Source: an uncultured virus (IMG/VR IMGVR_UViG_3300044591_001667)
Taxonomy: Duplodnaviria; Heunggongvirae; Uroviricota; Caudoviricetes
IMG/VR virus record: IMGVR_UViG_3300044591_001667
Length of the DNA stretch: 64,000 nt
Strand: one strand, 5' to 3'
A model generated the notes under the pieces. That model worked only from the letters and a program-made list of their open reading frames with translations. It was not told the origin of the DNA and did not search any database. Shown here piece after piece: positions 24,262 through 41,727 of the stretch (positions are counted from its first letter, which is position 1; each line of letters opens with the position of its first letter). The position numbers were made by a program, and so were the translations under genes.

Positions 24262-24297
24262 AAGAAACCCCGCCCAAAAGGCGGGGTTCTTTATTTT
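24262..24297. terminator. Bidirectional intrinsic terminator
   Basis: AACCCCGCC-caaaa-GGCGGGGTT flanked by A and T runs between convergent genes. Confidence 0.8.
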
Positions 24298-24303
24298 GTA
24301 AGA

Positions 24304-24792
24304 CTACGGCAATACTTCGACTGAGGTTCCAGCAAATACAGCCTTGATAAGTTCCTCTGAGTAGAGTCCAGCCTTAACCGCACTGTCGCTCTTGAAGTCT
24401 TCAAGGGCTTGTGCAGTTCCGACACTAATCCAGCCACGCTTGTCATCTCCAGCAGTCACATGACCTAGTTCAATGAGGCGTTCCTGAAGCACCGCAACAG
24501 AGTTACTGTTCTTTGAATACAGAGATTCAAACACAATCTTAGAAAGATAAACAGAAGTTCCATCGGCGATCTGCGATCCGACCACAGATTTTTTACCCCT
24601 GTTCTTCTTCTCAGCTGCTGCACCTGGTTCTTCAACCGCAACAACTTCAGGCTCAACTACGATGGCAACTGGTTCTTCAACCTTGACCATCTCAGGTGCT
24701 GGCTCAGCCATCACAACAGGGAGAGTCTCAGGCTCAACTGCGAGCGCCTTAGGCTCTTCCATCTGATACAAACGCTCTGGTTCTTGACTCAT
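24304..24792 (-). CDS. Protein with E/P-rich N-terminus and peptidoglycan-binding-like C-terminal domain
   Basis: VAVLQERLIELGH..G..TAQALEDFK; next to transglycosylase. Confidence 0.55.
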   Translation of the reverse strand: MSQEPERLYQMEEPKALAVEPETLPVVMAEPAPEMVKVEEPVAIVVEPEVVAVEEPGAAAEKKNRGKKSVVGSQIADGTSVYLSKIVFESLYSKNSNSVAVLQERLIELGHVTAGDDKRGWISVGTAQALEDFKSDSAVKAGLYSEELIKAVFAGTSVEVLP

Positions 24793-24794
24793 AA

Positions 24795-25442
24795 CTATCC
24801 TTTGGTTGGGTATTCAGCAAGGAAAGATTCAAACCTTTCACTGCCTTTATTATAACCGCTAACCTTCCAAGCCGAGAAGTTAGTTCCTTTAGCACTCATG
24901 TGAAAGGCAATCTCTGCATTGGTCACAGGGTCAAGCAAGTCTGAGTTCTTTGCTAGTTCATACTTCTCGATGCGTGCATCTCCAAGTGCTCCTATCATGT
25001 TGATTTGGAACAGCCCGTATGAATTATCACCTGTTCGGGTATTTGAGTTATGCGCTTTAGGACGACCATTAGACTCAGTCATCACCACAGCCCACGCTGT
25101 CTTCAGCCCTTGACCCTCAAACCCAACGAGTTTGAGCAAGTTCTTCAATTCAACTGGGGCTAGAGGTATAGACCTGTCTTCAAACAGCTCTAACTGCATC
25201 TGAATTTTCAGATTTTTTACCTCTTCGAGCTTCTCCTCCTGGGATTTAGCTCCAGCTATCCGTGCTGCTGCCAGATTGACGAGCCGCACTTCTTCCAATA
25301 CAACAGCGGGTGCTGCTGCTCCTGCATTCGTTTCATTAGTTTCTGCACTTGCTGCCGCACTCCATACGACTGCTCCTGCTAGCACTGCTGCTATCACACC
25401 AAACGTAGTAGTTTCGGCATGGCGAAATAAAGGACTTCGCAT
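24795..25442 (-). CDS. Membrane-anchored lysozyme-like/lytic transglycosylase
   Basis: N-terminal hydrophobic segment; AVVMTESNG, DNSYGLFQIN, LLDPVTNA..FSAW. Confidence 0.8.
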   Translation of the reverse strand: MRSPLFRHAETTTFGVIAAVLAGAVVWSAAASAETNETNAGAAAPAVVLEEVRLVNLAAARIAGAKSQEEKLEEVKNLKIQMQLELFEDRSIPLAPVELKNLLKLVGFEGQGLKTAWAVVMTESNGRPKAHNSNTRTGDNSYGLFQINMIGALGDARIEKYELAKNSDLLDPVTNAEIAFHMSAKGTNFSAWKVSGYNKGSERFESFLAEYPTKG

Positions 25443-25545
25443 TTGCTTCTCCTTTGTTAGGGGACATGGGCAGGTTGCTAGTTACTCGCAACCAATGGGC
25501 TAGGACGCCCTTCGTTCTGTCTAATGTGTCGTTTCATCATGAAAA

Positions 25546-25576
25546 CCATAGCACACATGCAGGAAAGTCTGTCAAA
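25546..25576 (-). promoter_or_regulatory. Promoter with TGCAGGAA core in inverted orientation
   Basis: Minus strand TTGACA-gactTTCCTGCAtgtgtgc-TATGGT. Confidence 0.55.
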
Positions 25577-25590
25577 CACAGACACTCCGC

Positions 25591-25986
25591 CTATGCGTAA
25601 GGGAGACTGTGTTCTTCTTCATACCAGCGTGAGCCTAAACTGCTCCCCTTTTTGGTCTTTTTACGCTTGTCAGAGACTTCGAGCATCTCATACCAGACTC
25701 CGTGCAGAGGTTCCGCGAAATCATAACCACGGGTCTTTGTCACCTGCGTCTTGAAATTGTCGTAGTTCATCTCCTCAATGCGTTCGGAAACCCAGAGATT
25801 CAACTGCTCCTTCGTAATGTAGACGCGATACTCATAGTCGCGTCCCTGGAGTTCCACAATTTTTACCCCGAACTTCTTCACAAATCCTTCGAGGGACTTC
25901 TTATCGCGAGCGCGAACTGAAATCTTTGTTCGGTCTTCCTTTGAAACAACCGCACTTACATAACCTGTATCAGTAAATAGCCACAT
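25591..25986 (-). CDS. Hypothetical phage protein
   Basis: Start reassigned to ATG 25986; MWLFT..GYVSAV..VRAR..DYEYR..NYDNFK. Confidence 0.65.
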   Translation of the reverse strand: MWLFTDTGYVSAVVSKEDRTKISVRARDKKSLEGFVKKFGVKIVELQGRDYEYRVYITKEQLNLWVSERIEEMNYDNFKTQVTKTRGYDFAEPLHGVWYEMLEVSDKRKKTKKGSSLGSRWYEEEHSLPYA

Positions 25987-25988
25987 AA

Positions 25989-26135
25989 TTACTCTCTTCC
26001 ACTTAGGACGGCGGACGAAATTGCTACTGCACCAAATGCCACCACGAAATCTGATGCTCCTACAAATGCAGATACAACCGCACTTGCTCCTGCGAGCGCC
26101 GAAATCAGCGCTGTCCAAACAATGTTCTTAGGCAT
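25989..26135 (-). CDS. Small hydrophobic membrane peptide (48 aa)
   Basis: Hand-translated MPKNIVWTALISALAGASAVVSAFVG...; fills gap between neighbours. Confidence 0.5.
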   Translation of the reverse strand: MPKNIVWTALISALAGASAVVSAFVGASDFVVAFGAVAISSAVLSGRE

Positions 26136-26328
26136 TAGTCACTATCTTTCTGTCTGGGCGGGTTCTACCCACCAATCTCTGGGACGGGTCTCTGAACTCA
26201 ATCCCACCTGCTTTAATGGCTTTGCGTGCTGTCCTGTAGGCAACGCCCAACTTCTGGGCTACTGCCTCAACTGCCAAACCATCTGAATACATCTTCGCTG
26301 CTTCTTCAGCAAGGCGCTGACTCTTCAT
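26128..26328 (-). CDS. Small helix-turn-helix protein
   Basis: MYSDGLAVEAVAQKLGVAYRTARKAI. Confidence 0.7.
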   Translation of the reverse strand: MKSQRLAEEAAKMYSDGLAVEAVAQKLGVAYRTARKAIKAGGIEFRDPSQRLVGRTRPDRKIVTNA

Positions 26329-26330
26329 TT

Positions 26331-26822
26331 TTACTCCTCGTCTCTTGGTCTTTGAACTGTCTGCTTCGGGTCGAAACCCATGTCACGCATTTTGCGTTCC
26401 AACTCCTGCCCACCTTCTTCACCTGAAACGGCGCGACCGCTCTTCCAAGTAAAGGGTGTCGTATCTCCCATCGGCAAAACCCATAGGTGATACTGATTCG
26501 CACCATCAACCAACATGGCTTCAGGTGGGAAAATCTCTATTGCTTCTCGCTGTGGACCCGCAAGTTCGTTCTTGATGCGTTGGAAATGACGCCAATCCCT
26601 AATCGCCTTGCGCTGTTGATGTCTGATGCTTAGGTGCATAGGACCATCATGTCCCTGATGCGGTATCAAGTAGGTTCTGAATACAACATAGAACCTGTTC
26701 TGCCACATGGTTTCGCCTTCTTGCAACAAATCTTTTCGAGGCTTGCCATCAACCATCGGCATCGCTTCTACGAACTCGTCCCAAGTCGGCGCTGTTGTGC
26801 CAGCTTTTTTACCCTTTGCCAT
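26331..26822 (-). CDS. Hypothetical phage protein
   Basis: HLSIR..DWRHFQRIKNEL.G..AIEIFP..LVD.ANQYHLW pattern. Confidence 0.7.
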   Translation of the reverse strand: MAKGKKAGTTAPTWDEFVEAMPMVDGKPRKDLLQEGETMWQNRFYVVFRTYLIPHQGHDGPMHLSIRHQQRKAIRDWRHFQRIKNELAGPQREAIEIFPPEAMLVDGANQYHLWVLPMGDTTPFTWKSGRAVSGEEGGQELERKMRDMGFDPKQTVQRPRDEE

Positions 26823-26824
26823 CT

Positions 26825-27004
26825 TCAGCCCCCAATCTTTGGAAGAGGAAGGTTCTTCATGTAAGCCTTCCGCGCTTCTCTTGTTGGTAGAGCGTCTCTT
26901 TCTTCCATCTGCTCTGGAGTCATGTAGGCAAACTTCAATAGGAAGTCCGCGAAATCGCTATCTGAAGTCTGAGATAAGTCTTGACCAAATTTTCCTTTAC
27001 GCAT
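26825..27004 (-). CDS. Hypothetical protein (59 aa)
   Basis: Hand-translated MRKGKFGQDL...PKIGG; TAATG overlap with upstream gene. Confidence 0.5.
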   Translation of the reverse strand: MRKGKFGQDLSQTSDSDFADFLLKFAYMTPEQMEERDALPTREARKAYMKNLPLPKIGG

Positions 27005-27213
27005 TATTTACCCCCAAAGTAGCACTCAACCATGTCGCCCCAGCAATACCCGTTCTCTGTCCACCAAAGGTTCTTGGCAACTGTCCAGATAACTACGAAC
27101 GCGATTACTGCGATTAGACCGAATACAACATTACGGCGCACTACATACTTGCGCTCTTGCTTCCACTTGGAAGTGTCGAACATAAATACTGCCTCTAGCA
27201 CTTTGTCGAACAT
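27004..27213 (-). CDS. Small membrane protein
   Basis: ATG 27213 after ATGACGAAAGGA; one TM helix. Confidence 0.6.
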   Translation of the reverse strand: MFDKVLEAVFMFDTSKWKQERKYVVRRNVVFGLIAVIAFVVIWTVAKNLWWTENGYCWGDMVECYFGGK

Positions 27214-27247
27214 TTTGTTTCCTTTCGTCATTTTGTCTTACTGGATA

Positions 27248-27278
27248 AGTTTATTACATCTTCCTGCACTTTGTCAAG
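27248..27278 (-). promoter_or_regulatory. Promoter with TGCAGGAAG core
   Basis: Minus strand TTGACA-aag-TGCAGGAAGATG-TAATAAACT. Confidence 0.7.
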
Positions 27279-27280
27279 TC

Positions 27281-27454
27281 TTAGTAGCCTCTAATTTCTT
27301 TTATTCTTTGCTCTTCCTTTATGCGCTCCTCATAGCCTTCTAGCCACTCGGTGATTACATCAAGAATACTCACCTGAGACTTTGCTCTACGGCGCACCCC
27401 ACCTGATAGGCGTCGGTATGAGCCATAAACTGCGCTGTCTGGTAGTCCTCGCAT
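27281..27454 (-). CDS. Hypothetical protein (57 aa)
   Basis: Hand-translated MRGLPDSAVYG...EIRGY; ACGACGAAAGGA upstream. Confidence 0.55.
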   Translation of the reverse strand: MRGLPDSAVYGSYRRLSGGVRRRAKSQVSILDVITEWLEGYEERIKEEQRIKEIRGY

Positions 27455-27637
27455 TGTCTTTCCTTTCGTCGTTTCTTCCTTACATAGATAACTTTATACG
27501 AAAGTGCAGGAAAGTCAAGTCCAAATGCAGGAAAATAAAATAAATTTTTTGTGATTAAAACCACATCAAAAATGTCCGAATTGTCTTAACACTTTTGAGG
27601 CTAAGGCTGAGGGGGGCTTTTTAACTTCCCAATAACT

Positions 27638-28222
27638 TTATCTAGTTGGCTGATGGCACTCGTCTTGCTGAACGAAAATCAAAAACTGCCCGCCTGTGTT
27701 GGGGTCAAGTTTCGCCGCGACCTCTAGCGAGCGCCGCACAGCAGCACGCACTGAAGAAACCGTGAATTTTTTACCCTCTAGCTCGTTGTGCAGCGATCCC
27801 AGCGCATACGATCCGCCTGATCCAAAAGCGTAGATCCCAGAAACATCTCTTGCCCAGTCATAGCCTGATCCAATTTCGTATGTAGCACCGTGCACTACGC
27901 AGAGAATTGTTGAGTCCTGACTACCTTTTTCGCCATACTGCACATCATCAAACAATGATTTAAGTTCAGGGATAAATTTAGTTGCTACAAATCTGTCAAG
28001 TTTATTGCCAGAGCAATTGATAGGCGGCGCAGGTGGCTTGAATTGATAAGCCAATAAGTTGATAGCCCGCATGTCACCCGCTGCGCCCAGCAAAAAGGGC
28101 CCATTTTTTACTATCTTTGGATTATCTTTTGGAAGATGGAAAACCCTGTCATCTTCAGTTACTTGGCTGTCACAACCAACCACAGACCAATGAGGTCCTT
28201 GCACAGCCACCATCGTTGTCAT
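27638..28222 (-). CDS. Proteasome-beta/HslV-like Ntn threonine peptidase
   Basis: N-terminal MTT, DSQVT, conserved Lys, GSGGSYALG, DPNTGG. Confidence 0.8.
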   Translation of the reverse strand: MTTMVAVQGPHWSVVGCDSQVTEDDRVFHLPKDNPKIVKNGPFLLGAAGDMRAINLLAYQFKPPAPPINCSGNKLDRFVATKFIPELKSLFDDVQYGEKGSQDSTILCVVHGATYEIGSGYDWARDVSGIYAFGSGGSYALGSLHNELEGKKFTVSSVRAAVRRSLEVAAKLDPNTGGQFLIFVQQDECHQPTR

Positions 28223-28470
28223 TAGTTGTCCCAGAGAGCCTCTCGAAGTAATTCGTCATACTCCGCACCACAATGGGTGTGCTTCTTTGCAGAAATGTCT
28301 TCTTCTTCAATAATTGTGTCTAAATCAAGAACAGCCGTATAGCCTTCTTCATCAAACATAACTACAAGTTTTACCCTGCCATCATTCGTATCATCAACTA
28401 TGGCAACAACAAACTGCTGTCCATCGGAATTCGTATGAACAGAGGAATCAAGAATTTCTATTTCAGACAT
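28222..28470 (-). CDS. Hypothetical acidic protein
   Basis: 82 aa; leaderless TACGAT-N6-ATG. Confidence 0.65.
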   Translation of the reverse strand: MSEIEILDSSVHTNSDGQQFVVAIVDDTNDGRVKLVVMFDEEGYTAVLDLDTIIEEEDISAKKHTHCGAEYDELLREALWDN

Positions 28471-28667
28471 ACCTCAATCGTAGACCTGCTTTAGCAAGGT
28501 GATACGGCGGCACGCGAAACACCTCTTCCCCGCATAGGGTGTGCAGGAAAGGGTGCGGCAGGGGTAGCAATCCCGCCTCATCAGCTCAGCGAGCGCGAAG
28601 CTCCAGCCAGAGCTGGAACTCTAGAATAAAACAAATTTTTACCCCTGATTTGCTGCTGCGAGCGCTG

Positions 28668-28886
28668 TTACTCCTCGACGATGCCAATTTCGTTGGAAAC
28701 TGACTCCAAATCCCACCCGTAGTGACCCAACATAAATTGCTTTGCCAATCTAATGGCAAACTCATCGTCGTCTTCACCTTCGGCACGCAACTCCTCGTTT
28801 AGAACAACTGTCGTCATCATTGAGAAGTAATCACCAACAAACAAAACTGTTCGAGAAAGGTTTATCTCATCTATAGACTCGCTCAT
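28668..28886 (-). CDS. Hypothetical protein
   Basis: ATG 28886 overlapping upstream stop. Confidence 0.6.
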   Translation of the reverse strand: MSESIDEINLSRTVLFVGDYFSMMTTVVLNEELRAEGEDDDEFAIRLAKQFMLGHYGWDLESVSNEIGIVEE

Positions 28887-29245
28887 TATTTCCAACCCCC
28901 TAACCCATCAGCAAAATAAGTTCTTCCTGTCATAGCATCTCCTTCGTGCTTCCACGCCCAATCACAGCAAGGCTTGGCTTTGTCATCAGTTGGGTGAAGA
29001 CCTCTTGGTAGTTTAGCCGCAAGCATCGGGAAAGTCTTCAGCATCTTCAGTATGCACTCGTGGCATAAATTCCACTCCAAATTTTTATCCCCCAACGCTG
29101 GAGCATTGTCTATGAAACCCCCGTAGTAACCCAACTCTTGAAAGTTAAACGCGATGCCATTATCAACAACTTCTTCTTGACTGTGACACTCTTTAGGAAC
29201 ACCGCACGCATCGCAAGTTTGGTAACCATAAAAAGGTTCAGTCAT
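28886..29245 (-). CDS. Hypothetical Cys-containing protein
   Basis: CDAC..GYYGGFID..LCHEC. Confidence 0.65.
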   Translation of the reverse strand: MTEPFYGYQTCDACGVPKECHSQEEVVDNGIAFNFQELGYYGGFIDNAPALGDKNLEWNLCHECILKMLKTFPMLAAKLPRGLHPTDDKAKPCCDWAWKHEGDAMTGRTYFADGLGGWK

Positions 29246-29402
29246 CGTAACAACCGCAACAATCTACGCAGAGTCTGTCATCATCTTTAGAACAATTAGG
29301 ACAGAGATACTGGTCTAGTGTCTTCTCAGGTTCTTTGCAATCTTCGCAAACAATCTTTTCTAACTCTTGAATAGACATGTCCCGCAAGTGTTTTCTTGCC
29401 AT
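29238..29402 (-). CDS. Small Cys-rich zinc-finger protein
   Basis: Start reassigned to ATG 29402; CEDC..CPNC..CVDCC. Confidence 0.55.
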   Translation of the reverse strand: MARKHLRDMSIQELEKIVCEDCKEPEKTLDQYLCPNCSKDDDRLCVDCCGCYDD

Positions 29403-29409
29403 CAGATTT

Positions 29410-29655
29410 TTACTTACCTTCCTGCTCTTGTAAGTATTGAGCAATCTCTTCTCTTGTTGCTCCTGTTGCCTCTTGAAACCGCACCCACAAGTCTCCTGTT
29501 GTTGCATACATTTCCATCATCGCAAACAACTTATCCATTGAATAATCTTTGTGGTTCTTGTGCTTGTTAATTCTTTCTTGAAAGAAAGTTAGTAACATCG
29601 CCATGCCCATCGCAGAAAGTTCTGCTTCTTTTTCATTGAGTTCTAGTGTTGCCAT
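29410..29655 (-). CDS. Hypothetical protein
   Basis: 81 aa; ATGACGAGAGGA upstream. Confidence 0.65.
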   Translation of the reverse strand: MATLELNEKEAELSAMGMAMLLTFFQERINKHKNHKDYSMDKLFAMMEMYATTGDLWVRFQEATGATREEIAQYLQEQEGK

Positions 29656-29682
29656 TTGAGTTGTCCTCTCGTCATTTTTAGG

Positions 29683-29759
29683 TATACACGGAGCAACATC
29701 TTGTTTCCGACCCTCTAGAGTTCAAGTCGTTCAGGTGACCACTGCTGGACTCCGTGTAT
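29683..29759 (-). ncRNA. Candidate structured 5' leader RNA
   Basis: 10-bp closing stem ATACACGGAG/CTCCGTGTAT with internal helices, beginning at predicted start site of promoter at 29795. Confidence 0.35.
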
Positions 29760-29766
29760 GAAAGTA

Positions 29767-29816
29767 ATCATTTCACTTTCCTGCAACTTTGTCAAGTTTA
29801 TTTTGCTGGCGTGTCG
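29767..29816 (-). promoter_or_regulatory. Promoter with TGCAGGAAAG core and upstream CGACACGCC
   Basis: Minus strand CGACACGCC-N12-TTGACA-17 nt-AATGAT. Confidence 0.65.
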
Positions 29817-30009
29817 GCGAGCGCCACCACCACCATACCCACCACCACCGACATCTTTGCATCATTGAAAAGTTATCTGCATCTTGCAGGACCTGGAGGA
29901 ACTGAACGATCAAGAATTTTTACCCCCTGATTACGATCCGCGGCCGCAGCTTCCCAACAAAAGAAAAACTCCCGCATCTTTCGACACGGGAGTTCTTGTT
30001 CTTCGACGC

Positions 30010-30228
30010 TTAGTTATTACTCCACGCTCCGAAGTCAATGTCACTTGCTTCACGACGGGAGTCTGCCCAAGCCATCTCTCCGTAGTAATACTTCTTCTTC
30101 TTTGTTTCCTTGTTTGTAACTGCCCAGTAGTCCTGATAAAACTCTGCTGTCCCTACTGAAACTGATACTAAGTCGCTGTCATAGACAACTTCCCAGTTCT
30201 TTACCTTAGTAACACTTGGCTTTGCCAT
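30010..30228 (-). CDS. Hypothetical protein
   Basis: 72 aa; ACGACGAAAGGA upstream. Confidence 0.65.
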   Translation of the reverse strand: MAKPSVTKVKNWEVVYDSDLVSVSVGTAEFYQDYWAVTNKETKKKKYYYGEMAWADSRREASDIDFGAWSNN

Positions 30229-30255
30229 AACAATCCTTTCGTCGTTGTTAAAAGT

Positions 30256-30284
30256 AATCTAACACTTTCCTGCATCTTTGTCAA
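30256..30284 (-). promoter_or_regulatory. Promoter with TGCAGGAAAG core
   Basis: Minus strand TTGACA-aagaTGCAGGAAAGtgt-TAGATT. Confidence 0.75.
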
Positions 30285-30411
30285 GCATCTTCGTTCATGT
30301 CACCAAATAGCGGCGCATCATTAAAAAGTTGTTTGCACCTGGTGCAGGTTTTTTGCTGACGCAGCCTCAGCTCCTGGAATTTTTACCCCGCATCTCCGCA
30401 CGCATCTGGGC

Positions 30412-30443
30412 AAAAGAAAAACCCCCGCATCTCTGCGGGGGCT
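30412..30443 (-). terminator. Intrinsic terminator
   Basis: CCCCCGCA/TGCGGGGG stem with U tract on minus strand. Confidence 0.75.
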
Positions 30444-30468
30444 TCACTCCTAATTGGGGGGTTAGGTT

Positions 30469-30828
30469 TTACTTGGCGACTAGCACCACATACTTGCTAA
30501 GGGTCTGTGTTGCTTCGTATGCCTCTGGGAAGGCGGTCTTTAGGGCTTCGGTGTCAATACCGCGTCGTTCGCGGTGTGAAACCTCTAGGCGGAGAGTTCC
30601 GTCTGGGAGAAGTCCCTGTGTAGCCTCACCAAGATAAGACTTGATTTGTGCCTCTAGTTCTTTCTTTTCTTTTTCCATCTTTGTGATGAGGTCACGCTTT
30701 TCAATGAACTGCTCAATCACAATCTGGGTTGTCTTGTCGAGATAAACCGCATTTGCCTTTGTCTCAACTGTGGTTGTTACTTCTACTACTGGTGTTGCTA
30801 TTGTCTTTGTAACTGTTGCCTTAGACAT
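30469..30828 (-). CDS. Hypothetical coiled-coil phage protein
   Basis: 119 aa; coiled coil then IDTEALK..FPEAY. Confidence 0.65.
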   Translation of the reverse strand: MSKATVTKTIATPVVEVTTTVETKANAVYLDKTTQIVIEQFIEKRDLITKMEKEKKELEAQIKSYLGEATQGLLPDGTLRLEVSHRERRGIDTEALKTAFPEAYEATQTLSKYVVLVAK

Positions 30829-30906
30829 AACTAAGACTCCTTTTCATTTTGTCATTTCTCTCGGAGACTTCCTCAGAGAGGTTCTCAGGTTTCCCTGATA
30901 GATAAA

Positions 30907-30972
30907 ACATTACACGACCTTCCTGACATCTGTCAAGTCAAGTCAAGCACTTTTTTGTAACGAATTGGTAAC
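30907..30972 (-). promoter_or_regulatory. Promoter with GTTAC-N6-GTTAC box and TCAGGAAGG core
   Basis: Minus strand GTTAC-caattc-GTTAC, TTGACA at 30936, TAATGT. Confidence 0.7.
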
Positions 30973-31088
30973 AACTTTTGATGCTTTTGATGGTTGATGG
31001 GCTACACCATCTGAACAAGTGAGTTCACCAAAGGTATCTACCCACCCAAAGTCTTGATGGAGTTCCCAACCGCATCTAACGCAAACGC

Positions 31089-31199
31089 TTAGCATTTACC
31101 GCACCCTGCGTGATGGGTGTAATCACTTTCCTTGATGGAGAACGGGCTTCCGCATCTCCAACAATGTATGTAAATAATGACGGGCTTTCTTTTCGCCAT
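31089..31199 (-). CDS. 36-aa zinc-finger microprotein
   Basis: Hand-translated MAKRKPVIIYIHCWRCGSPFSIKESDYTHHAGCGKC; own promoter (TTGACA 31254) and ACGACGAAAGGA. Confidence 0.55.
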   Translation of the reverse strand: MAKRKPVIIYIHCWRCGSPFSIKESDYTHHAGCGKC

Positions 31200-31277
31200 T
31201 TCATACTCCTTTCGTCGTTGGAAGTATTCTTGCACTTCCCTGCACTCTTGTCAAACACATTTTGCTGGGCGTGTCGC

Positions 31278-31760: not shown

Positions 31761-31772
31761 TTTTTTACTCCC

Positions 31773-32222: not shown

Positions 32223-32365
32223 TATTTTTCCTTTCGTCGTTTTGTTTTAGGTTGGAAGCCCCGCCTCTTGGTTTCAGACGGGGCTTCCGTTTTTACCCTA
32301 TCCCTGTTTGGACAATGCGTTGGAAGGACGCTAACAAGGTTTCGGGTTGAGAGTTCGCCGTATTG

Positions 32366-34135: not shown

Positions 34136-34277
34136 TTCGTCGTTCCTTCCATTTATGTCTTTGTCCGAGACAGGTAAATCCTATAATGAAACATCTTTGG
34201 GTGTCAAGTAGGGGAAGTAGGGGGCGCGACACCCATGAAGCGCCCCCCACCCTTTTCAGCAAAAATCCGACATAGGG

Positions 34278-35321: not shown

Positions 35322-35341
35322 TTCCCTATGTCCTTTTCTCT

Positions 35342-35797
35342 TTACGCAATCAGTTCTGTTGGGAACTCTGTTGCTTCACGAACTAAACCAATTCGGTAAA
35401 GCAACTTGTTGGGTGTCTTGCTTGTTCGTATGTCCTCTAAATCTTTTTTCGAGACTTCGATAACAAACGCATCTTTTACAATCTGCCAACCACCATTATT
35501 TATCGCATCGAATAAGTCAATCGCGAAAAACATACGCTGGTTTGCAAACGCTTCTCTCTTCTCATCTGAGAGTGGAACTCCACCTAATTCTGTAATCGCG
35601 TGATTAGGAATTGGAGAGTTGCGCCATTGTTTCTTAGGTGACGCTGGTGTTACTACTCGACGGAACAAATTGGCAGGAACTTCTTTCCCATCAGTTGTGT
35701 ATCCATCAGGTGTGATGATGATTTGCATTGTTGCTCCGGGCTTACGGAACTCGGCATAAACGCCTACGCCCTGAACATCTTTCGTGTTATCTAGCAT
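35342..35797 (-). CDS. Hypothetical protein
   Basis: 151 aa; ACGACGAAAGGA upstream. Confidence 0.65.
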   Translation of the reverse strand: MLDNTKDVQGVGVYAEFRKPGATMQIIITPDGYTTDGKEVPANLFRRVVTPASPKKQWRNSPIPNHAITELGGVPLSDEKREAFANQRMFFAIDLFDAINNGGWQIVKDAFVIEVSKKDLEDIRTSKTPNKLLYRIGLVREATEFPTELIA

Positions 35798-35835
35798 TGG
35801 GTGTCCTTTCGTCGTTGTTGCTAGTGAAAACTAAT

Positions 35836-36327
35836 CTACCATCTCTCTGCTAAATGTGCAAACTCTTCAGCAAAAAGATTTTCAGGTGTCGTGGTCTTTC
35901 CGAAAACTGAGGTGTAAAGGGCTAGACCCTCAGACCACTCTTCCCACCCACCATCTGAGGAAACTTCAACTTGCTTCCCAAAAACATCTTTGATGAGTAT
36001 TAGGGTTGCACAAACTAAAGTGTCATAAGGGTGCATTTGTGTTTTGCAAAAGTTGAAAGAAGTTTTTGCATCTTTATCCCAATCAGGTGCAGGTGGCACT
36101 ATCTGAGAGAAATGAAAAGTTTCACACGCTTGTGGTTCAATGCCATTGAAAGCGATGCGCTCGCCATCTGCTTGCCACGCACCTGCTTTTTCTCCAAAAG
36201 CATCTGCAACTGTTATGCCATTGAGTTCAGCTTTTTTTACCAACTCGATAAAACCTTTACGAACCTTGTCATAAAGTTCAGGCTCATTACTATCGAGACT
36301 TCTTTTTAGATAATGGGTGTATCCCAT
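35836..36327 (-). CDS. Hypothetical phage protein (MGYTHY..FNG..ETF..FCKT..PYD pattern)
   Basis: Motif pattern; own promoter (TTGACA 36395) and start motif. Confidence 0.7.
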   Translation of the reverse strand: MGYTHYLKRSLDSNEPELYDKVRKGFIELVKKAELNGITVADAFGEKAGAWQADGERIAFNGIEPQACETFHFSQIVPPAPDWDKDAKTSFNFCKTQMHPYDTLVCATLILIKDVFGKQVEVSSDGGWEEWSEGLALYTSVFGKTTTPENLFAEEFAHLAERW

Positions 36328-36561
36328 GATTTATCCTTTCGTCGTTTCTGCTTTCGCATTGAGATGATTATTGCATCTCCCTGCAATCGTGTCAAGTAGA
36401 ACGCAATAACTTTTTGATTTATTTCCTGTCCCCTCTTTGGGGGATAAAAACCGCGAGCGCGGAAAAAAGATGGTGAGCAGTTTCAACACATGCTCAGGTG
36501 TGGCACGCGGGATAACGACGAAGAAACCCGCGGCAGTTCTTATTTTTACCCTACGTGTGGC

Positions 36562-36906
36562 CTAGCTGTCAAGCTGGTCACGTGGCATGAAGTCATCAAG
36601 GTCTACACCGTACTGCTCAAACTTGTCGTACAACACCGACATGTCCTCGGGCTTCTCGTATGACTCCGTAATCAGACGTGCAACGTTTGCACGCTGGTCA
36701 TCACTAGCGGATTCCAGAATCTCCCAGTCGATTTCTCTCCAGTATGTGGTCTCCAATACGAGCATGCCACTCGCGTCACCGTAGTTCCCGTCAAGCGCAA
36801 AGTAGTGTAGCGAGCGCTCGATTGGCTGCGGATCGATTATTTTTACCTCTAGCGAGCCGTCTTCTACGACGAGCTCCGCATCAACAATGTCTTCTTCTTT
36901 AGCCAT
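36562..36906 (-). CDS. Hypothetical acidic protein
   Basis: 114 aa; YFALDGNYGDA. Confidence 0.65.
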   Translation of the reverse strand: MAKEEDIVDAELVVEDGSLEVKIIDPQPIERSLHYFALDGNYGDASGMLVLETTYWREIDWEILESASDDQRANVARLITESYEKPEDMSVLYDKFEQYGVDLDDFMPRDQLDS

Positions 36907-36995
36907 GCCGTTTTTACCCTTCCGTTTGTAAATCTAATCTTACCTTGCCGTTGGCATTGGGTGGGGCTTTTTACCCCACCCACGCCGTGCCGTTC

Positions 36996-37715
36996 TTAGA
37001 CAATCATCTCGCTGATGTCCTCGAACTTCTCAACAACTTGCTCTGTCTGCTCGACCAACTCGCCGACCTTCTCCGCCTTGTTCGGGCAGTCGTCAAACCA
37101 ATCTTCAGCATCATCATCCCAAGAGCAACGGCATCCGTCCTCGTTATCCCGAGCCTTGTAGTCAGCGTGGCTGTCTGGGATGTCCCACTCCTCGGCAACA
37201 ATCAACTCGCCGTCTTCGCTGACATACCGCACGCCCCAGCCTTGCTCCTCTTCGCAATCAAACTCGAAGGTAAGTTCTGGGTGCTGTTCAACCATTGCTC
37301 GGTAAGCACCTTCGGCAGGAGACCAAGCCGTAGAGAACTGATAACGAATGTTGCCTTTAGAACTGTTGTCCTCGAAGTAGAGGTCGCTACAGTCCCACTT
37401 AGTTCCCCAGTTGCGGATGTTCCAGTCATACCAACCATCTGACTTGAACTGCATAGAGACAGCCATCTTCTCTTCAACACTTAGTTCGTCATAGCCCTCT
37501 GGCTTGTAATCGCTTGCCCCAAAGTAAAGTTGCTTGTTCTCTGGTTCTATGAAGTTCCAAAATGAAAGTTCTTTTTCTGAAACTTCTTCTTTTGTTTCAT
37601 TTGTTTTCCAGTCCATCCAGTAAGTCGTGTGAGGCTTGGTCGCCTTCTCAACAAACTTCTTGAGGTCTTCTTCTTTTCCTGAAACAGTCATACTATTGAA
37701 TACCCAGTTTGGCAT
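36996..37715 (-). CDS. DUF1281/YubB-like ferredoxin-fold protein
   Basis: MPNWVFN, WYDWNIRNWGTKWD, FSTAWSP. Confidence 0.75.
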   Translation of the reverse strand: MPNWVFNSMTVSGKEEDLKKFVEKATKPHTTYWMDWKTNETKEEVSEKELSFWNFIEPENKQLYFGASDYKPEGYDELSVEEKMAVSMQFKSDGWYDWNIRNWGTKWDCSDLYFEDNSSKGNIRYQFSTAWSPAEGAYRAMVEQHPELTFEFDCEEEQGWGVRYVSEDGELIVAEEWDIPDSHADYKARDNEDGCRCSWDDDAEDWFDDCPNKAEKVGELVEQTEQVVEKFEDISEMIV

Positions 37716-37763
37716 TGTTTATCCTTTCGTCGTTTTTGGATAGTTCCCTTCGGAACAGTTTTA

Positions 37764-38018
37764 TTATTTCACATCTTTGCATTTATCGCAAGTGCTCATA
37801 CAACAATCGCAATAGTTTTCGTGAGAGTCGTGGGAACAGCAATCTGTATTGACAGCAACAAAATCCCACTTGGCTGTGATTTCATAATCCTCGAAGTCAT
37901 CTGAAATCCAGTCATCAAGTTTGTTGATGGCGTCGTCTTCACTCTCTGCCTCGCCCACCTCAACCACATACTCTCTGGTGAGGGTCGCATAGATTTTATA
38001 GGTCGCCATCAAAGACAC
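37764..38018 (-). CDS. Hypothetical protein with Cys-rich tail
   Basis: VEVGEAESEDDAI; start uncertain (ATG 38009 likely). Confidence 0.55.
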   Translation of the reverse strand: MSLMATYKIYATLTREYVVEVGEAESEDDAINKLDDWISDDFEDYEITAKWDFVAVNTDCCSHDSHENYCDCCMSTCDKCKDVK

Positions 38019-38193
38019 CTACGCCTTCTTTGAAATCCTCAATGAGGTCTGACAACAACCCATCAAGAAAGTTTTCGGCACGACCTTCTAGTTCGTCAGC
38101 AACTTTTTCCCACTGCTCATCTGTGATGAACGCAGAAATCATTCCCTCGAAATCATCTTTCGAGATGGTGCTTATGTTCACTACCTTTGCCAT
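37996..38193 (-). CDS. Hypothetical protein
   Basis: 65 aa; ITDEQWE; ACGACGAAGGGA upstream. Confidence 0.6.
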   Translation of the reverse strand: MAKVVNISTISKDDFEGMISAFITDEQWEKVADELEGRAENFLDGLLSDLIEDFKEGVGVFDGDL

Positions 38194-38402
38194 TTGTATC
38201 CCTTCGTCGTTTTACTTGGCATAACAAACATTACATCATCTCTCTGACAAAAGCAAGTCAGGGCGTTTCGTTGATGTCAGCAAATGCGAGGTCGAGAAGA
38301 AGAAGTTGTTTGGAAGTTTGGACTGGCCTGGGGCCCTGGCGATTTTGAGCGTGAGTAAAAATCTGAGTTGTTAGGTTTTTGCTGTGGTTCTGTGGTTTTG
38401 AG

Positions 38403-38582
38403 TTATTTGGAAGTTGAATCCTGATCGGCCGATTCACTGATCGCTTCAAGATTTTTTACCCCACGGGTACGACGACGCTTCGTGCGGCGGTCTTCAAAGA
38501 CCTGCGCTTTCTGGTTCTGCACGTAGTTTCCAGGCACGCCTTTGATGCGACGCTTGAGTTCATCCCGTTCTTTTTTACCCAT
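38403..38582 (-). CDS. Small basic protein
   Basis: Start reassigned to ATG 38582 (TATTAT-N6-ATG); FEDRRTKRRRTR. Confidence 0.5.
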   Translation of the reverse strand: MGKKERDELKRRIKGVPGNYVQNQKAQVFEDRRTKRRRTRGVKNLEAISESADQDSTSK

Positions 38583-38645
38583 GCATAAATAATAAACCCG
38601 TGGGCTCGCAGTGAGCTCCACGGGCTTACCGTAGTTATTTGAATG

Positions 38646-39059
38646 TCAGATGCTCGCCGCAGCGGATCTGGCTTCCTCCACCATCTCACGGGTGAAGTAC
38701 GTGACATCGCTTATGGCACGCCGTTCCATATTTTTACCTCCGTACACCCAACTACCCGCGCCGCCAAAGAACGCTGAGCTGTGATCCGTTCCAACTTCCC
38801 AATAATCTTTTTGTGTGCGGTTAGTTGAAATTTCAAATACGTAGATGCGGTCATGCCGCTCTAAGTCCATGCCGACTATCTTGCCGCTCTCTAACTTGTA
38901 GTGCGGGTGGTCAAGAAGTCTGAACCACATAAAGTTCATTGCATCGGCTGGACTACTCGCCGCATATATCTCACCGAAGTTAGACTTCAATCCCTCGCCG
39001 TTAATATTTTCAAACACGCATTCAGGTGCGGCGTGGTACAACTTACTGGGTACTTTCAT
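38646..39059 (-). CDS. Small ADP-ribosyltransferase-fold-like protein
   Basis: LYHAAP..NINGEGL..EIYA..VFEI pattern of ART/Tpt1-like folds. Confidence 0.5.
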   Translation of the reverse strand: MKVPSKLYHAAPECVFENINGEGLKSNFGEIYAASSPADAMNFMWFRLLDHPHYKLESGKIVGMDLERHDRIYVFEISTNRTQKDYWEVGTDHSSAFFGGAGSWVYGGKNMERRAISDVTYFTREMVEEARSAAASI

Positions 39060-39176
39060 CCGTCTCCTCGTCCCGTGCCGCATCAGCCTTTTCTAGATGC
39101 GACTCAATCCAATCCTCGTGGCTAGTTCCTAGCCCGTCCCGTTCTTGGCTCTCAAGCCACTCAACATATCCACGCA

Positions 39177-39482
39177 TTACGCACGCCCGCAATCTTCGTA
39201 CGGGTACTCATGCGGTTCTAGGTCTTCGCAGGAACAGAACCCAAACAGTTCTACTTGCGTGCCGTGCGTCAGATCCGCTAGCTCGCTGTATGACATCACA
39301 ACATCTTCTCCTTCTTCGACCAGCCGCTGCCCCTTGCCTGTTCCCAAGCCGACGCCGTATGTATCAAAGTGTGGTTCACACATATTGCCCCACGGGCCGT
39401 ATGTTGTCATGCCGTCGAATCTTGCCTTCTCAGTGCAGAAGTCGCATTGAGGTAAAGCCGCTACTTTTGTAATTGTTGACAC
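39177..39482 (-). CDS. Zinc-binding hypothetical protein
   Basis: CDFC..A.FDG.T..GPWGNMC..H..GLGTGKGQ. Confidence 0.65.
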   Translation of the reverse strand: MSTITKVAALPQCDFCTEKARFDGMTTYGPWGNMCEPHFDTYGVGLGTGKGQRLVEEGEDVVMSYSELADLTHGTQVELFGFCSCEDLEPHEYPYEDCGRA

Positions 39483-39569
39483 GGGTGTCCTTCCGTCATT
39501 TTGTTAGAGCGGTTGCTCTGATAATTATTGTAGTACCTCTCTGACAAACATGCAACTCTTAAATATAAA

Positions 39570-40030
39570 AAGTTATTTCCGTGTCGCGCCGCTCTGCAGC
39601 TCTAGGCCGCACGCCAAAGTTATTTGAAAGTTCGACAGCTTCGGGCCCGATCCGATCAGATTTTTTTACCCCCCGTAAAAGCCTGGCACCTGGTGCTGCA
39701 CCTGGGATGGGAAAAAGTTATTTGGAAGTTGCAAGCTGAAGGGCCCTTTTTAGTTTCGCGGCCGCTAGGTTGCGAAACCTAATCCTACTCGGTCTGTCAA
39801 GTTTTGTCAATGCTGCGGCTGAAGTTGTTCGTAAGTTGTTTAGCGATCTGGAGCTGGCCAGCTTCTGGGGGGTAAAAATTATTGATCTGGCGGCGGGCCG
39901 TCATCCCAAGTTGTTTGGATGTTGGCGGCGATCTGCAGCTACGTGCTGGTGACCTTCCTGCTTTTTCGTGCGAACGTGCGAATTAAGCTGGCCGCTGTAG
40001 CTTGGCAAAGTTATTTGGATGTTGAGATCT
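39570..40030 (+). repeat. Dispersed AAGTT(A/G)TTTG(G)A(A/T)GTT repeats about 100 bp apart
   Basis: Copies at 39617, 39715, 39822/39833, 39908, 40008; also 38303, 38400. Confidence 0.65.
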
Positions 40031-40150
40031 GGACTTAAGCTGCAGCTAAACCTCCCTGCATTAATACCGTTGTAATTTAGGTGTAAGTTACTACGTGACA
40101 TGCCGTTGTATTTATACGCACGCACAGGCGCATGCCGTTAGTATTTAAGA

Positions 40151-40336
40151 ATGATTTCGATTCTTGCGCATGCCGACCCGTCAGGTGACTGGGGTCTACA
40201 CCACGTCTTACCGTTCCTCGCCGCTTTCGCTGGAACCGTTGGGACATACCTCGTTCTAGGGCGAGCCGTTATTCGGAAGTGGTGGAAGCGTGCCGTTGGG
40301 TTGCTGCGCAGCTTTTACACACGCCGTCCGCATTAA
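40151..40336 (+). CDS. Small membrane peptide
   Basis: One TM helix plus basic tail; leaderless TAGTAT-N6-ATG. Confidence 0.45.
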   Translation: MISILAHADPSGDWGLHHVLPFLAAFAGTVGTYLVLGRAVIRKWWKRAVGLLRSFYTRRPH

Positions 40337-40467
40337 GTTCCTCGCCGCACCAGAAACAATCCGTTGTCATAGCAGGTCGTCCATCTCACTCACGCCGTCT
40401 TTTGGCACAGGTTCTTTAGTGCAGTCGCCCTCTTGCCGTCCCATGCCGTTCTCCTCTTGACAAACCG

Positions 40468-40511
40468 TTAATTACTAACTATGCTAGCACCTAGCATAGT
40501 TTAGTAATTAA
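40468..40511. promoter_or_regulatory. Near-perfect 44-bp palindrome overlapping a consensus + strand promoter
   Basis: TTAATTACTAACTATGCTAG-cac-CTAGCATAGTTTAGTAATTAA; TTGACA(40457)-17-TATGCT. Confidence 0.6.
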
Positions 40512-40714
40512 TCTATAAATCCCATGCCGCTAATGTTGCGAACAGGCTGCGGCTCATTTGATTCAAGTTTTAACAATCCGTTAACCATCTCCGCTGCTTC
40601 ATTGGCGCGAGCCGTTACCCGAATGTGTTCATCTCTTGTGCGGGCCAGCTTGATGTCGTTCTCGAGCCGCTCTGCATGCAGCTGTGCTAATTCCAAAAGT
40701 TGTTGGTTTGTCAT
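40508..40714 (-). CDS. Hypothetical protein
   Basis: 68 aa, ATGA overlap with upstream gene. Confidence 0.55.
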   Translation of the reverse strand: MTNQQLLELAQLHAERLENDIKLARTRDEHIRVTARANEAAEMVNGLLKLESNEPQPVRNISGMGFID

Positions 40715-41712
40715 CGTAGCTCGTCGAGCTCCTCGTCTGAGATGGTTGGTTGGTCAAGTTGTTCCGTTGTTGGTACTGCAGCTCCAGCTGTTGTTGGGGG
40801 GGTAAAAATTTTAGGCGGATCCTGATCCAGCTCCAGAACAACTTCCGCATCTTGTACGGAAGTGTCCGCAGCTGCGAGCTCGCCTTGAATAATGTTGGCT
40901 CCTGCTTTCAGGCGGGCAAGCCGTTCAGCAATAATTTCAGCGGGCGTACGGGAATCCTTTAACTCCACGCCGATGTCAATCTCCATACCTGCTCGCACGC
41001 CAGCACGGTCAAGTATCTCCGTTGCCGCTTTGAGGCGGACGGGTTCAGAGACAGCGGTCTCCATAAGTTCTTCAAGTTTGTCCACAGCGTATGGGGCAGA
41101 CTGTAGAAGTTTTGCGCGAGCCCGTTCGATGTCCACGCCTGTCTTTTTTACCCCGCCGAGGTGGAGGCGACACAAGCCGTCATCTTTAATCCGTCCCGAT
41201 GACCACAGCATGCAGCGCATACCCTCTGGGGTCTGGGCTCGACAGCGGGTAGGTAATGTTCTCGGCGCTCGCCGATCAGTAGGCGGGCCGCCAGCTTCCT
41301 GCTCTTTTATCCAAGCGCGGGTTGCCGCTAGTACCCAAGGGGGTACAAGTTTGCAAGCCTCTTGGTCAACAACCAGATCGAGGCCCGTCAAGTAGTCGGA
41401 GTTATTCTGAAGTGGTTCTGACAGCAGAGCTCGTTTTGCTGAGATGCTGATGAGACGCCGTTCCTTCATCTGCTCAAGCGAGCGAGCCTCGATGAGGTTG
41501 GTGGCGTGTCCGTTAGATGTGTAGACGGGAACCCATTGGTAGTTGTTGCCACGTAGGATGGCACGGTTCTCGTAGGTATCCTCAACGATGCCGCGGTCAT
41601 GCTCGATGAGTCCGAGTTCGGACAAATCGGGCCGCATATCGGAGGCCGTTTGAATTAAAGGTTCGTCTGGTTCTTTGTCAGACGGTTCATCAAAAAGTTC
41701 GAGGTCACTCAT
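40711..41712 (-). CDS. Probable terminase small subunit
   Basis: RC.A..G.RC..LC.LH.G Zn motif followed by VRLKAATEILDRAG, common in actinophage small terminases. Confidence 0.55.
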   Translation of the reverse strand: MSDLELFDEPSDKEPDEPLIQTASDMRPDLSELGLIEHDRGIVEDTYENRAILRGNNYQWVPVYTSNGHATNLIEARSLEQMKERRLISISAKRALLSEPLQNNSDYLTGLDLVVDQEACKLVPPWVLAATRAWIKEQEAGGPPTDRRAPRTLPTRCRAQTPEGMRCMLWSSGRIKDDGLCRLHLGGVKKTGVDIERARAKLLQSAPYAVDKLEELMETAVSEPVRLKAATEILDRAGVRAGMEIDIGVELKDSRTPAEIIAERLARLKAGANIIQGELAAADTSVQDAEVVLELDQDPPKIFTPPTTAGAAVPTTEQLDQPTISDEELDELR

Positions 41713-41727
41713 TTTTTTACCCCCGAA

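Follow-up and report, generated by a model that had tools for sequence, protein, structure and literature searches.

The DNA studied here, called the window throughout, is a stretch of 64,000 nucleotides from an uncultured virus of the Caudoviricetes (IMG/VR IMGVR_UViG_3300044591_001667). Our subject is a short word, TTTTTACCC, referred to as the control word, which is repeated in a block of small genes of this phage, and the restriction-type sites around it. Far from the word, GATC, AGCT, and similar sites are strongly depleted in the block; close to it, they are present at about the frequency expected for DNA free of avoidance, with CCGG as the exception.

The early block and its control word

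Judged by its sequence, the window belongs to a freshwater actinophage related to Actinomycetia phage DSL-LC01, a metagenome-assembled phage from a lake. With its counterpart in DSL-LC01, the major capsid protein shares 72% identity; more distant relatives are found in Microbacterium, Arthrobacter, Gordonia, and Mycobacterium phages. Furthermore, the gene order of the window matches that of DSL-LC01 in reverse. Twenty DNA sequencing runs from lakes or freshwater were found to contain the phage DNA. On the minus strand, 0 to 21 kb are occupied by genes for the portal, a giant virion protein, protease-like proteins, and the capsid. The small minus-strand genes at 24304..41913 form a block, evident from the map of open reading frames (ORFs) and from synteny with the small-gene block of DSL-LC01 (18 to 44 kb), that is purged of palindromes except near the control word. 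Among its products are an HslV-like peptidase, an AAA ATPase, and a 589-aa protein, and a megablast search of the block against phage records gave zero matches. We call it the early block because its genes are small and unknown and have their own sigma70-like promoters and terminators; the name is given by analogy, and early expression of these genes is putative.

The control word occurs 21 times in the window compared to 0.61 expected, and 20 of these copies lie within 24,590 to 41,722. On the coding strand, it reads GGGTAAAAA. The 8-mer TTTTTACC served as a wider definition of a copy, and variant copies such as TTTTTACCT were also considered. Eighteen of the 20 copies in the block are oriented with minus-strand genes and the two opposite ones with plus-strand ORFs, and therefore, the word points with the genes. 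Inside ORFs it is read in two different frames, which rules out a peptide motif and argues for a nucleic acid signal. A longer conserved repeat that holds the sites was also rejected: beyond gGGGTAAAAAw the flanks are uninformative, and in an alignment of four lineages (see below) the conservation of the word is 0.887 compared to ~0.72 for the flanks. Within 100 bp the flanks have a conservation of 0.71 to 0.75, compared to 0.78 to 0.80 further out, and this drop is seen in coding DNA as well. Neither is the word the mark of a common hairpin, as the structure varies from copy to copy without a shared fold; the mean DNA folding energy is −13.6 kcal/mol at word copies and −11.5 kcal/mol in background windows (P = 0.013).

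A start codon is touched by about 5 of 24 copies, and most copies are located 40 to 900 nt inside ORFs or 50 to 390 nt upstream of them. A conserved second element at promoter spacing was not found around the word. At a subset of the intergenic copies, a second word, AACTTCCAAATAACTTT, is located downstream at a distance of 36 to 45 bp, with a terminator on one side and a sigma70-like promoter on the other. This second word is a direct AACTT repeat. Separate TTGACA-N17-TAnnnT sites are found ~100 to 150 bp downstream of the control word. Because the islands of restriction-type sites described below depend on the bases after the A-run, the effective word is ~12 bp long and reads gGGGTAAAAA(A)TY on the coding strand. 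One candidate for its reader is a 66-aa helix-turn-helix protein encoded in the block (26128..26328, minus strand; Pfam HTH_23, 1.4e-5). A relative of this protein is present in a sister clade of phages that shares the GTAAAAA core, and in clades devoid of the word none was found within the covered loci of ±10 kb.

Restriction-type sites near and far from the word

GATC occurs 59 times in the window compared to 223 expected, and of the 11 4-mers with the strongest under-representation, 9 are palindromes (GATC, z = −21.6). In 37 kb of coding DNA, the ratio of observed counts to a codon-shuffled null is 0.18 for GATC, 0.16 for CCGG, and 0.34 for GGCC. The sites that are present in the early block are gathered around the control word. 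Between 23.3 and 42 kb, the stretches within ±100 bp of the 9-mer make up 20.3% of the DNA, but they hold 22 of the 27 GATC (binomial P = 1.6e-11), 27 of the 49 AGCT (P = 8e-8), and 12 of the 20 GGCC (P = 1e-4). Among all 4-mers with at least five copies, GATC and AGCT rank first and second in enrichment near the word. When copies are defined by the 8-mer TTTTTACC, 23 of the 27 GATC are at most 100 bp away from one, and only those at 39272, 40026, 41274, and 41376 are not.

A sequence-only reading had already claimed that such sites cluster around the motif, and most of its particulars stand. All 12 GATC that it listed between 23.3 and 38.3 kb exist and have no company there, and the stretch without the motif is indeed free of GATC, with none between 31,508 and 36,831. 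The eight positions given for the DNA beyond were correct, but 38665, 38783, 39930, 40026, and 41274 had been missed. NotI sites are found at 29940 and 39758, as claimed; these are the two NotI sites of the window, and both lie near the word. Four non-coding patches described as packed with sites (369 bp) hold 4 GATC, 7 AGCT, 6 CCWGG, 3 GGCC, and 9 GCNGC, but 0 CCGG. The use of Gly-Ser codons that create GATC could also be reproduced: the pair is encoded as GGA-TCN in 5 of 8 cases near the motif, in none of the 12 early-gene cases that are far from it, and in none of the 37 cases in other large genes. The AGCT and CCTGG near 25240 had been misjudged as an exception, because a variant copy, TTTTTACCT, is located at 25214.

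The sites are found on both sides of the word, mostly 10 to 40 bp from its center and with a tail to ~100 bp, and the 6-bp palindromes among them are of 19 different kinds. At five copies, GATC is located at exactly +5 of the word, compared to 0.00 such cases expected. As to a helical periodicity of the allowed sites, a 5.5-bp peak alone appeared (P = 0.01 among 32 periods tried), which is unconvincing.

The contrast is present in coding DNA (GATC, 6.2 per kb near the word compared to 0.3 per kb far from it; AGCT, 6.6 compared to 1.3) and in non-coding DNA (GATC, 5.1 compared to 0.5; AGCT, 8.0 compared to 2.3), so that location in one or the other is rejected as its cause. The control palindromes TGCA, TCGA, CTAG, and CATG have zero contrast. 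In the codon-shuffled null, the check that the sequence-only reading had proposed, each protein and its codon usage were kept and the word was fixed (500 shuffles, our own ORF list). Near the word, GATC was observed 15 times compared to 14.0 in the null, AGCT 16 compared to 12.8, GGCC 4 compared to 6.0, CCWGG 3 compared to 4.9, and GCWGC 11 compared to 7.9. Far from the word, the counts were 4 compared to 34.5 for GATC, 13 compared to 40.2 for AGCT, 4 compared to 25.4 for GGCC, 1 compared to 10.7 for CCWGG, and 11 compared to 23.1 for GCWGC. The control TGCA matched the null in both zones (near, 9 compared to 9.0; far, 53 compared to 53.8). Near the word, the avoided words are thus at neutral expectation, and far from it they are depleted. 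The exception is CCGG (near, 0 compared to 3.9; far, 4 compared to 14.5). Dinucleotide shuffles agree with the codon null for far DNA, and under both nulls, sites are depleted 8- to 9-fold in far DNA but not in the vicinity of the word. In the non-coding islands, GATC, AGCT, GCWGC, and CCWGG reach about twice the dinucleotide-shuffle expectation (P = 0.01 to 0.04 each). CCGG is missing there (0 compared to 6.8 expected), as it is near the word in coding and non-coding DNA together (0 compared to 13.3), and none is found in any island of the window.

The avoidance is not restricted to these words. Far from the word in the early block, the ratio to the codon null is 0.52 for 4-bp palindromes and 0.24 for 6-bp palindromes (29 compared to 119), whereas it is 0.79 and 0.79 in the structural genes and 0.80 and 0.76 in the genes of the right arm. 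On top of the general avoidance, palindromes as a class are thus purged from the early block. Near the word, the ratios are 0.79 and 0.58; for 4-bp palindromes, these zones are back at the level found elsewhere in the window, and the relief for 6-bp palindromes is partial. AGCT is barely avoided outside the early block: its ratio is 0.32 inside the block far from the word compared to 0.83 over all far coding DNA, and in two complete relatives it occurs at 4.9 per kb genome-wide. A non-palindromic hexamer, GCAGGC/GCCTGC, is absent from both strands of the whole 64 kb compared to 19.6 expected and may be the target of a non-palindromic restriction system.

Islands are limited to copies that, on the coding strand, continue with TT or TC after the A-run of GGGTAAAAA. 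In the window, the 12 copies of this kind have 65 restriction-type words within ±60 bp, compared to 12 for the other 12 copies (Mann-Whitney U test, P = 8e-5). Over four related, non-independent genomes, the mean number of words is 4.5 for copies continued by TT, 4.6 for TC, 2.0 for TA, 0.1 for TG, and 0.4 for GC. The TG-extended copies, which form start codons, thus average 0.1 words (n = 10 over the four genomes). In the sister clade, the data on this dependence are sparse and give no pattern to read. Twelve copies outside the early blocks (window and two relatives, some of them assembly duplicates) have five GATC in 2.5 kb, and three of the five are at two copies that resemble the duplicated edge of the block in one complete relative (G003). 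TTGACA sites more than 150 bp away from any copy of the word (n = 12) have 0 GATC and 1 AGCT within ±60 bp. The position of an ordinary promoter is therefore insufficient for an island, and ordinary promoter occupancy was rejected on this account, the sigma70-like sites being consensus predictions.

Inside genes, island copies on the minus strand are found at 24590..24598 (GGGGTAAAAAATC, in ORF 24304-24792; GATC at 24568 and 24575 and six restriction-type words within ±60 bp), at 25214..25222 (the variant AGGTAAAAAATC, in an SLT-lysozyme ORF, 24795-25442; 4 AGCT and 4 GCWGC within ±100 bp), at 27768..27776 (GGGTAAAAAATT, in the HslV-like peptidase ORF, 27638-28222; five GATC, 27795-27870), and at 31517..31525 (in ORF 31278-31760; GATC at +5, position 31508, and at 31481). 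A further minus-strand copy of GGGGTAAAAAATC at 38453..38461 has GATC at 38423 and 38439. Intergenic island copies, also on the minus strand, are located at 28636..28644 (GGGGTAAAAATTT; 3 AGCT and 2 GCWGC within ±100 bp), at 29917..29925 (GATC at +5 and NotI at 29940, between a terminator, 29997-29964, and a box of the second word, 29870-29878), and at 30380..30388 (among a terminator at 30445-30418, a box at 30326-30334, and a sigma70-like promoter at 30284-30256). A gene-poor control region (39483..40100) has GATC, AGCT, GGCC, and CCWGG in their densest cluster, along with two divergent copies of the word, one pointing with the minus strand (39663-39671) and one with the plus strand (39870-39878). 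Six AAATAACTT-type boxes (39570-39578, 39617-39625, 39715-39723, 39833-39841, 39908-39916, and 40008-40016) and the NotI site at 39758 are also found there. In plus orientation, an island copy is found at 40800..40808, the TAA of which is the stop codon of ORF 40524-40805, with 7 AGCT and 2 GATC within ±100 bp.

The copies devoid of islands are on the minus strand, too. At 26806..26814, 9 nt past the start codon of ORF 26331-26822, the A-run is followed by G, and at 32290..32298 it is followed by C and then a hairpin. The start-linked copy GGGTAAAAACGGCATG at 36911..36919 has no island of its own, and its neighbors at 36968-36976 and 36543-36551 are also poor in sites; GGGGGTAAAAAAATG at 41714..41722 abuts the start of ORF 40711-41712 and has no GATC/AGCT island. 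The lone copy outside the block (6114..6122), in the gene of a 1,394-aa virion protein, has its A-run followed by G and no GATC within 100 bp. A counterexample to the extension rule is the copy at 25860..25868, which is continued by TT and has almost no island (1 word). Between the copies lies a conserved core (32366..36327, minus strand) with the 589-aa protein, the AAA_5 ATPase, and two further ORFs, which contains neither the control word nor GATC. All four CCGG of the early block are in this core, in the genes of the 589-aa protein and the ATPase, and are kept in 4 of 4 lineages; another constraint may hold them.

Related lineages and neighboring genes

With the 589-aa protein, 23 related loci were recovered from viral contigs. 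Seven of them belong to the window's own clade (84 to 87% protein identity) and represent three further lineages with 9 to 24 copies of the word each. The four lineages are mutually related, and pooled counts are non-independent. The same clustering, which the sequence-only reading had suggested looking for in related genomes, is repeated in all three: GATC is near the word in 19 of 26 cases in locus L009, 8 of 8 in L010, 9 of 9 in L011, and 12 of 18 in L007, and GATC and AGCT are the two most near-word-enriched 4-mers in each of L006, L007, and L009. In two complete relatives, they are also at the top genome-wide.

In the four-lineage alignment, most copies of the word are at the same position, including those inside genes. 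The sites next to them turn over: of 42 aligned near-word GATC sites, 23 are present in one lineage; two lineages share 6, three share 10, and all four share 3. In the HslV-like gene, the word is kept in every lineage, and the number of adjacent GATC is 5, 3, 0, and 3. Nevertheless, the conservation of near-word GATC and AGCT is 0.48 compared to 0.36 for GC-matched control words (~95th percentile), and the +5 offset of GATC occurs three to four times per lineage, partly at the same place in two to four of them. Comparison of gains and losses of the word gave 31 restriction-type words at 14 word-bearing copies and 19 at 16 aligned places without it, which are few events. New CCGG in two other lineages of the clade are found only 4 to 19 bp from the word.

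The sister clade (52 to 54% identity) has a variant word, CAAAAAGTAAAAA, which often abuts start codons (~8 of 21 copies). One of its records (G004, loci L045 to L051; 124,941 bp) contains zero GATC, AGCT, and TCGA. In this clade, other sites are concentrated near the clade's own word: CCGG occurs at 3.74 per kb near it compared to 0.49 in the block away from it, and GTAC at 1.54 compared to 0.22. The same record encodes two adjacent ORFs of the N6_N4 methylase family despite the absence of GATC, AGCT, and TCGA. In the complete relatives of the window's own clade, G002 and G003, no match to PF00145 (C5), PF01555 (N6/N4), or PF02086 (D12) was found. DSL-LC01, on the other hand, has a C5 methylase, 880 GATC, 0 copies of the word, and no avoidance. 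Hence, avoidance goes together with a lack of self-methylation in the comparison of G002 and G003 with DSL-LC01, the window being a partial genome.

Other clades lack the control word and have other repeated words in their early blocks instead. In the homologous block, TTCTAAAGATGTTATAAT is repeated ~17 times in DSL-LC01 (L001, 18000-44000), CGATTTGACAAA ~18 times in L018, and GTATTCGTTTTTTCC 13 times in L025, and a ribosome-site context, ACGACGAAAGGA, is common to the window and these related clades. In G003 (L037 to L044), a record of 160.7 kb, the part at ~140 to 160 kb repeats the context of 4 to 24 kb, and identical word contexts recur ~136 kb apart; this is probably a terminal duplication from the assembly of a circularly permuted genome of ~136 kb.

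Outside the early block, the virion module of the window contains an ORF of 3,125 aa (8613-17990, minus strand) with a DEDDh exonuclease (residues ~1180 to 1375) and a Nudix domain (~1621 to 1772). Sequence searches for an injected RNA polymerase in this protein gave the exonuclease and Nudix domains only, and the leads from a protein atlas were weak. The neighboring ORF of 1,394 aa (3821-8005) matches PHROGs of the portal and head-protease type. Both proteins look multi-domain and may be delivered together with the DNA. In DSL-LC01, the large terminase adjoins the small-gene block; the equivalent region of the window (22600-24300) has no long minus-strand ORF. It is occupied by a cassette on the plus strand that includes a DUF3846 ORF (23545-23874), and the GC skew flips locally. 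Finally, ORF 60108-60518 (minus strand) is a match to Tad3, a family of Thoeris inhibitors (Pfam PF25185, 6.5e-19).

Proposed occlusion at the extended word and known systems

How could sites that are purged from a block be free to exist within tens of base pairs of a word? Neutral frequencies, rapid turnover, and the variety of palindromes together argue that sites beside the extended word carry no cost. We infer that the avoided words are targets of restriction or methylation, and we infer likewise the existence, identity, and timing of a bound factor. Like its relatives, the phage would survive restriction by the absence of sites, with the purge far stronger in the early block than in other parts of the window. 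A sequence-specific reader would bind the oriented ~12-bp word gGGGTAAAAA(A)T[T/C] on the coding strand and cover ~40 to 100 bp on each side, and this cover would coincide with exposure to restriction or methylation enzymes of the host. The shelter might act at cell entry, or it might act in the previous host, where the sites would stay unmethylated and hence safe from methylation-dependent restriction. In either case, covered sites would be neither cut nor marked and therefore free of cost, and they would drift in and out up to the frequency expected without avoidance. A minority of sites, such as the GATC five bases past the word and AGCT just upstream, would belong to the binding platform itself. 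The reader might be a small DNA-binding protein of the phage (for example, that of ORF 26128-26328), a protein of the host, or one that enters along with the DNA.

We favor this mixed picture, in which a bound reader occludes the flanks and makes restriction-type sites neutral there while a few sites serve the platform, because some sites look functional and not merely tolerated; we would give it slightly less than an even chance. The broader proposal, that a lineage devoid of methylases uses site-specific occlusion at ~12 oriented words of the early block to shelter short parts of the DNA that is most exposed, is put forward tentatively, as a possibility rather worth pursuing than probable. 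The idea of shielding by a motif-anchored protein or modifier had been raised by the sequence-only reading with a reach of ~100 to 200 bp. The neutral frequencies near the word, the turnover, the palindrome variety, and the tight relief (mostly 10 to 40 bp from the word center) fit it, but some of the sites look as if they were kept for function. The other idea of that reading, protected decoys for restriction or methylation enzymes of the host, found no support among tests of which none bears on it.

Several observations speak against occlusion as the cause. The GATC at +5 looks selected for, near-word GATC and AGCT are conserved above controls, the non-coding islands hold about twice the dinucleotide-shuffle expectation, and 5 of 8 Gly-Ser pairs near the word are GGA-TCN. 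The relief is not universal either: CCGG is absent from the islands of the window, GATC and AGCT are missing in the sister clade even from the surroundings of that clade's word, and the TT-extended copy at 25860 is almost free of an island. Furthermore, the comparison of gains and losses across the four lineages is small, and the identity and timing of the bound factor are guesses.

The first three of these observations would be explained if the palindromes were functional parts of composite control platforms, operator dyads or a GATC within an extended site, and were kept despite their restriction cost with no shelter involved. The recurrence of the +5 offset three to four times per lineage, the dependence of the islands on the 3′ extension of the word, and the second word AACTTCCAAATAACTTT placed between terminators and sigma70-like promoters at some copies also suit such platforms. 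However, in coding DNA the words are at, and not above, the neutral codon-shuffled frequency, 23 of the 42 near-word GATC are specific to one lineage, and one lineage has no GATC at all at a conserved copy. Many different palindromes, and other words in the sister clade, are hard to reconcile with a function that reads a sequence, and we consider platforms without shelter an unlikely cause, if one to be taken seriously. The lower conservation of the flanks within 100 bp could also mean that near-word DNA is exchanged between phages or mutates faster, so that new sites have not yet been purged. Indeed, several ends of BLAST segments between lineages fall within ~50 bp of copies of the word, and lineage-specific insertions bring their own copy plus GATC. 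Yet the islands inside genes differ among lineages by point substitutions and not by imported segments, CCGG is still absent from the islands of the window, and a selection that removes ~90% of far sites should clear recent arrivals as well unless they are harmless, which makes a junction or hot spot improbable.

A mutational origin of the depletion, in which the words are methylated wherever no bound factor covers them and then decay by deamination, would give the shape of CpG islands, with the expected frequency in small protected patches and depletion elsewhere, and the loss of AGCT is indeed matched by an excess of AACT/AGTT (1.27). The loss of GATC, however, is spread over its neighbors (CATC, 1.25; GACC, 1.27), with the deamination product AATC/GATT at only 1.15, and the deamination products of CCGG are not in excess (0.95 and 0.90). 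Moreover, three words are wholly absent from 125 kb of the sister clade, which is too complete for a mutational equilibrium, and a cytosine methylase was not found in the complete relatives. We rate methylation decay as very improbable because the deamination signature was not found. As to composition, amino acid content, or chance, near-word zones are slightly richer in G+C (0.50 compared to 0.46), and the near-word proteins allow more GATC (codon null, 5.8 per kb compared to 3.1 far from the word). Against this stand the binomial P value for the proximity of GATC, the two shuffled nulls with their depletion in far DNA only, the lack of contrast for TGCA, TCGA, CTAG, and CATG, and the repetition in three further lineages; chance and composition were rejected on these grounds, and an artefact can practically be dismissed.

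Restriction avoidance is usually seen as a property of a whole genome or a whole region, but here the cost of a site shifts within less than 100 bp and tracks a specific word. If occlusion at the extended word is true, these sanctuaries would be an evolutionary footprint of protein occupancy, the counterpart of the CpG island in a virus of prokaryotes, and sequence alone could then suffice to show where the DNA of uncultured phages is bound. If a bound factor is the cause, local shelter would be a new escape from restriction next to modification, inhibitor proteins, and complete loss of sites, and the early block would stand out as the DNA on which restriction pressure is greatest, which may be useful for the building of vectors and phages for restriction-rich hosts. 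The phages concerned infect abundant freshwater Actinobacteria. If the islands are control platforms instead, they would represent a new two-word regulatory architecture for early genes.

Full-text literature searches did not find a description of a local, motif-anchored exemption from restriction avoidance, in agreement with the sequence-only reading, which knew of no such system. The word itself resembles the stoperators of Cluster A mycobacteriophages (L5 gp71 and relatives), which are described as 20 to 30 short asymmetric copies, oriented with transcription, mostly off promoters, and with a clade-specific consensus (PMC6550527). The window, too, has many asymmetric, oriented copies (20, of a 9- to 12-bp word; two copies are turned around together with the genes), and the consensus of the sister clade is a variant one. 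Unlike stoperators, sites of 12 to 14 bp that are spread over the whole genome and bound by a phage repressor that blocks elongation, the word is confined to one block of ~18 kb; a repressor or lysogeny module was not identified in the window phage beyond the 66-aa helix-turn-helix protein as one candidate reader. The accessible part of the stoperator report states no link to the distribution of restriction sites (PMC6550527). Similar in another way are the SAS and extended SAS of Cluster K mycobacteriophages, described as asymmetric words in one orientation that are conserved across subclusters before unrelated genes, a subset of them with a second element, at a position a few bases (3 to 8 bp) upstream of start codons (PMC3203893). 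Like these, about 5 of 24 copies in the window and ~8 of 21 in the sister clade abut or overlap a start codon. Unlike SAS, the island-bearing copies of the window are mostly in mid-gene or far upstream, so that the word as a whole does not keep the SAS position, and the start-linked copies have no islands; the second element of SAS is an inverted repeat, whereas the second word of the window is a direct AACTT repeat. For SAS as well, a link to restriction-site distribution is not stated in the accessible part of the report (PMC3203893).

A sigma70-type promoter, with −35 and −10 boxes at a spacing of 16 to 18 bp, is not present at the word, and copies of the word do not form a hairpin signal such as a terminator or an N4-like hairpin promoter. 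GATC clusters of the Dam/SeqA type (oriC, P1 pac, and pap), which are specific for GATC, fixed in position, and read by way of one methylase, differ in that AGCT, GGCC, CCWGG, GCWGC, and 6-bp palindromes cluster in the window, too; furthermore, 23 of 42 GATC are lineage specific, and a D12 methylase was not found in the relatives. Closer in principle are the regulatory regions of E. coli, in which GATC sites occluded by proteins stay unmethylated, and the CpG islands of vertebrates, in which a bound factor shields a short stretch from a DNA-modifying enzyme and so creates a local exception to a genome-wide pattern. Unlike these cases, which concern one word, its methylation state or decay, and cellular genomes, many palindromes of a phage are affected here, and the signature of deamination was looked for and not found.

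In the window, palindromes are under-represented against composition-aware nulls, as in restriction-site avoidance in general. Position-dependent avoidance of restriction sites is known from the first-step-transfer DNA of T5. In Murciavirus, only motifs in the leading, first-injected region are reported to decide restriction sensitivity (PMC12455610). The early block of the window is likewise purged far beyond the rest (6-bp palindromes, 0.24 compared to 0.79 and 0.76 elsewhere), and AGCT is avoided only there. The phage is known from metagenomic contigs, and the early block, where avoidance is strongest, may be the part that enters the cell first. In the leading-region cases, avoidance acts at the scale of a whole region and is connected with the timing of entry and with anti-restriction proteins, whereas the exemption in the window has a radius of ~100 bp and is tied to a word.

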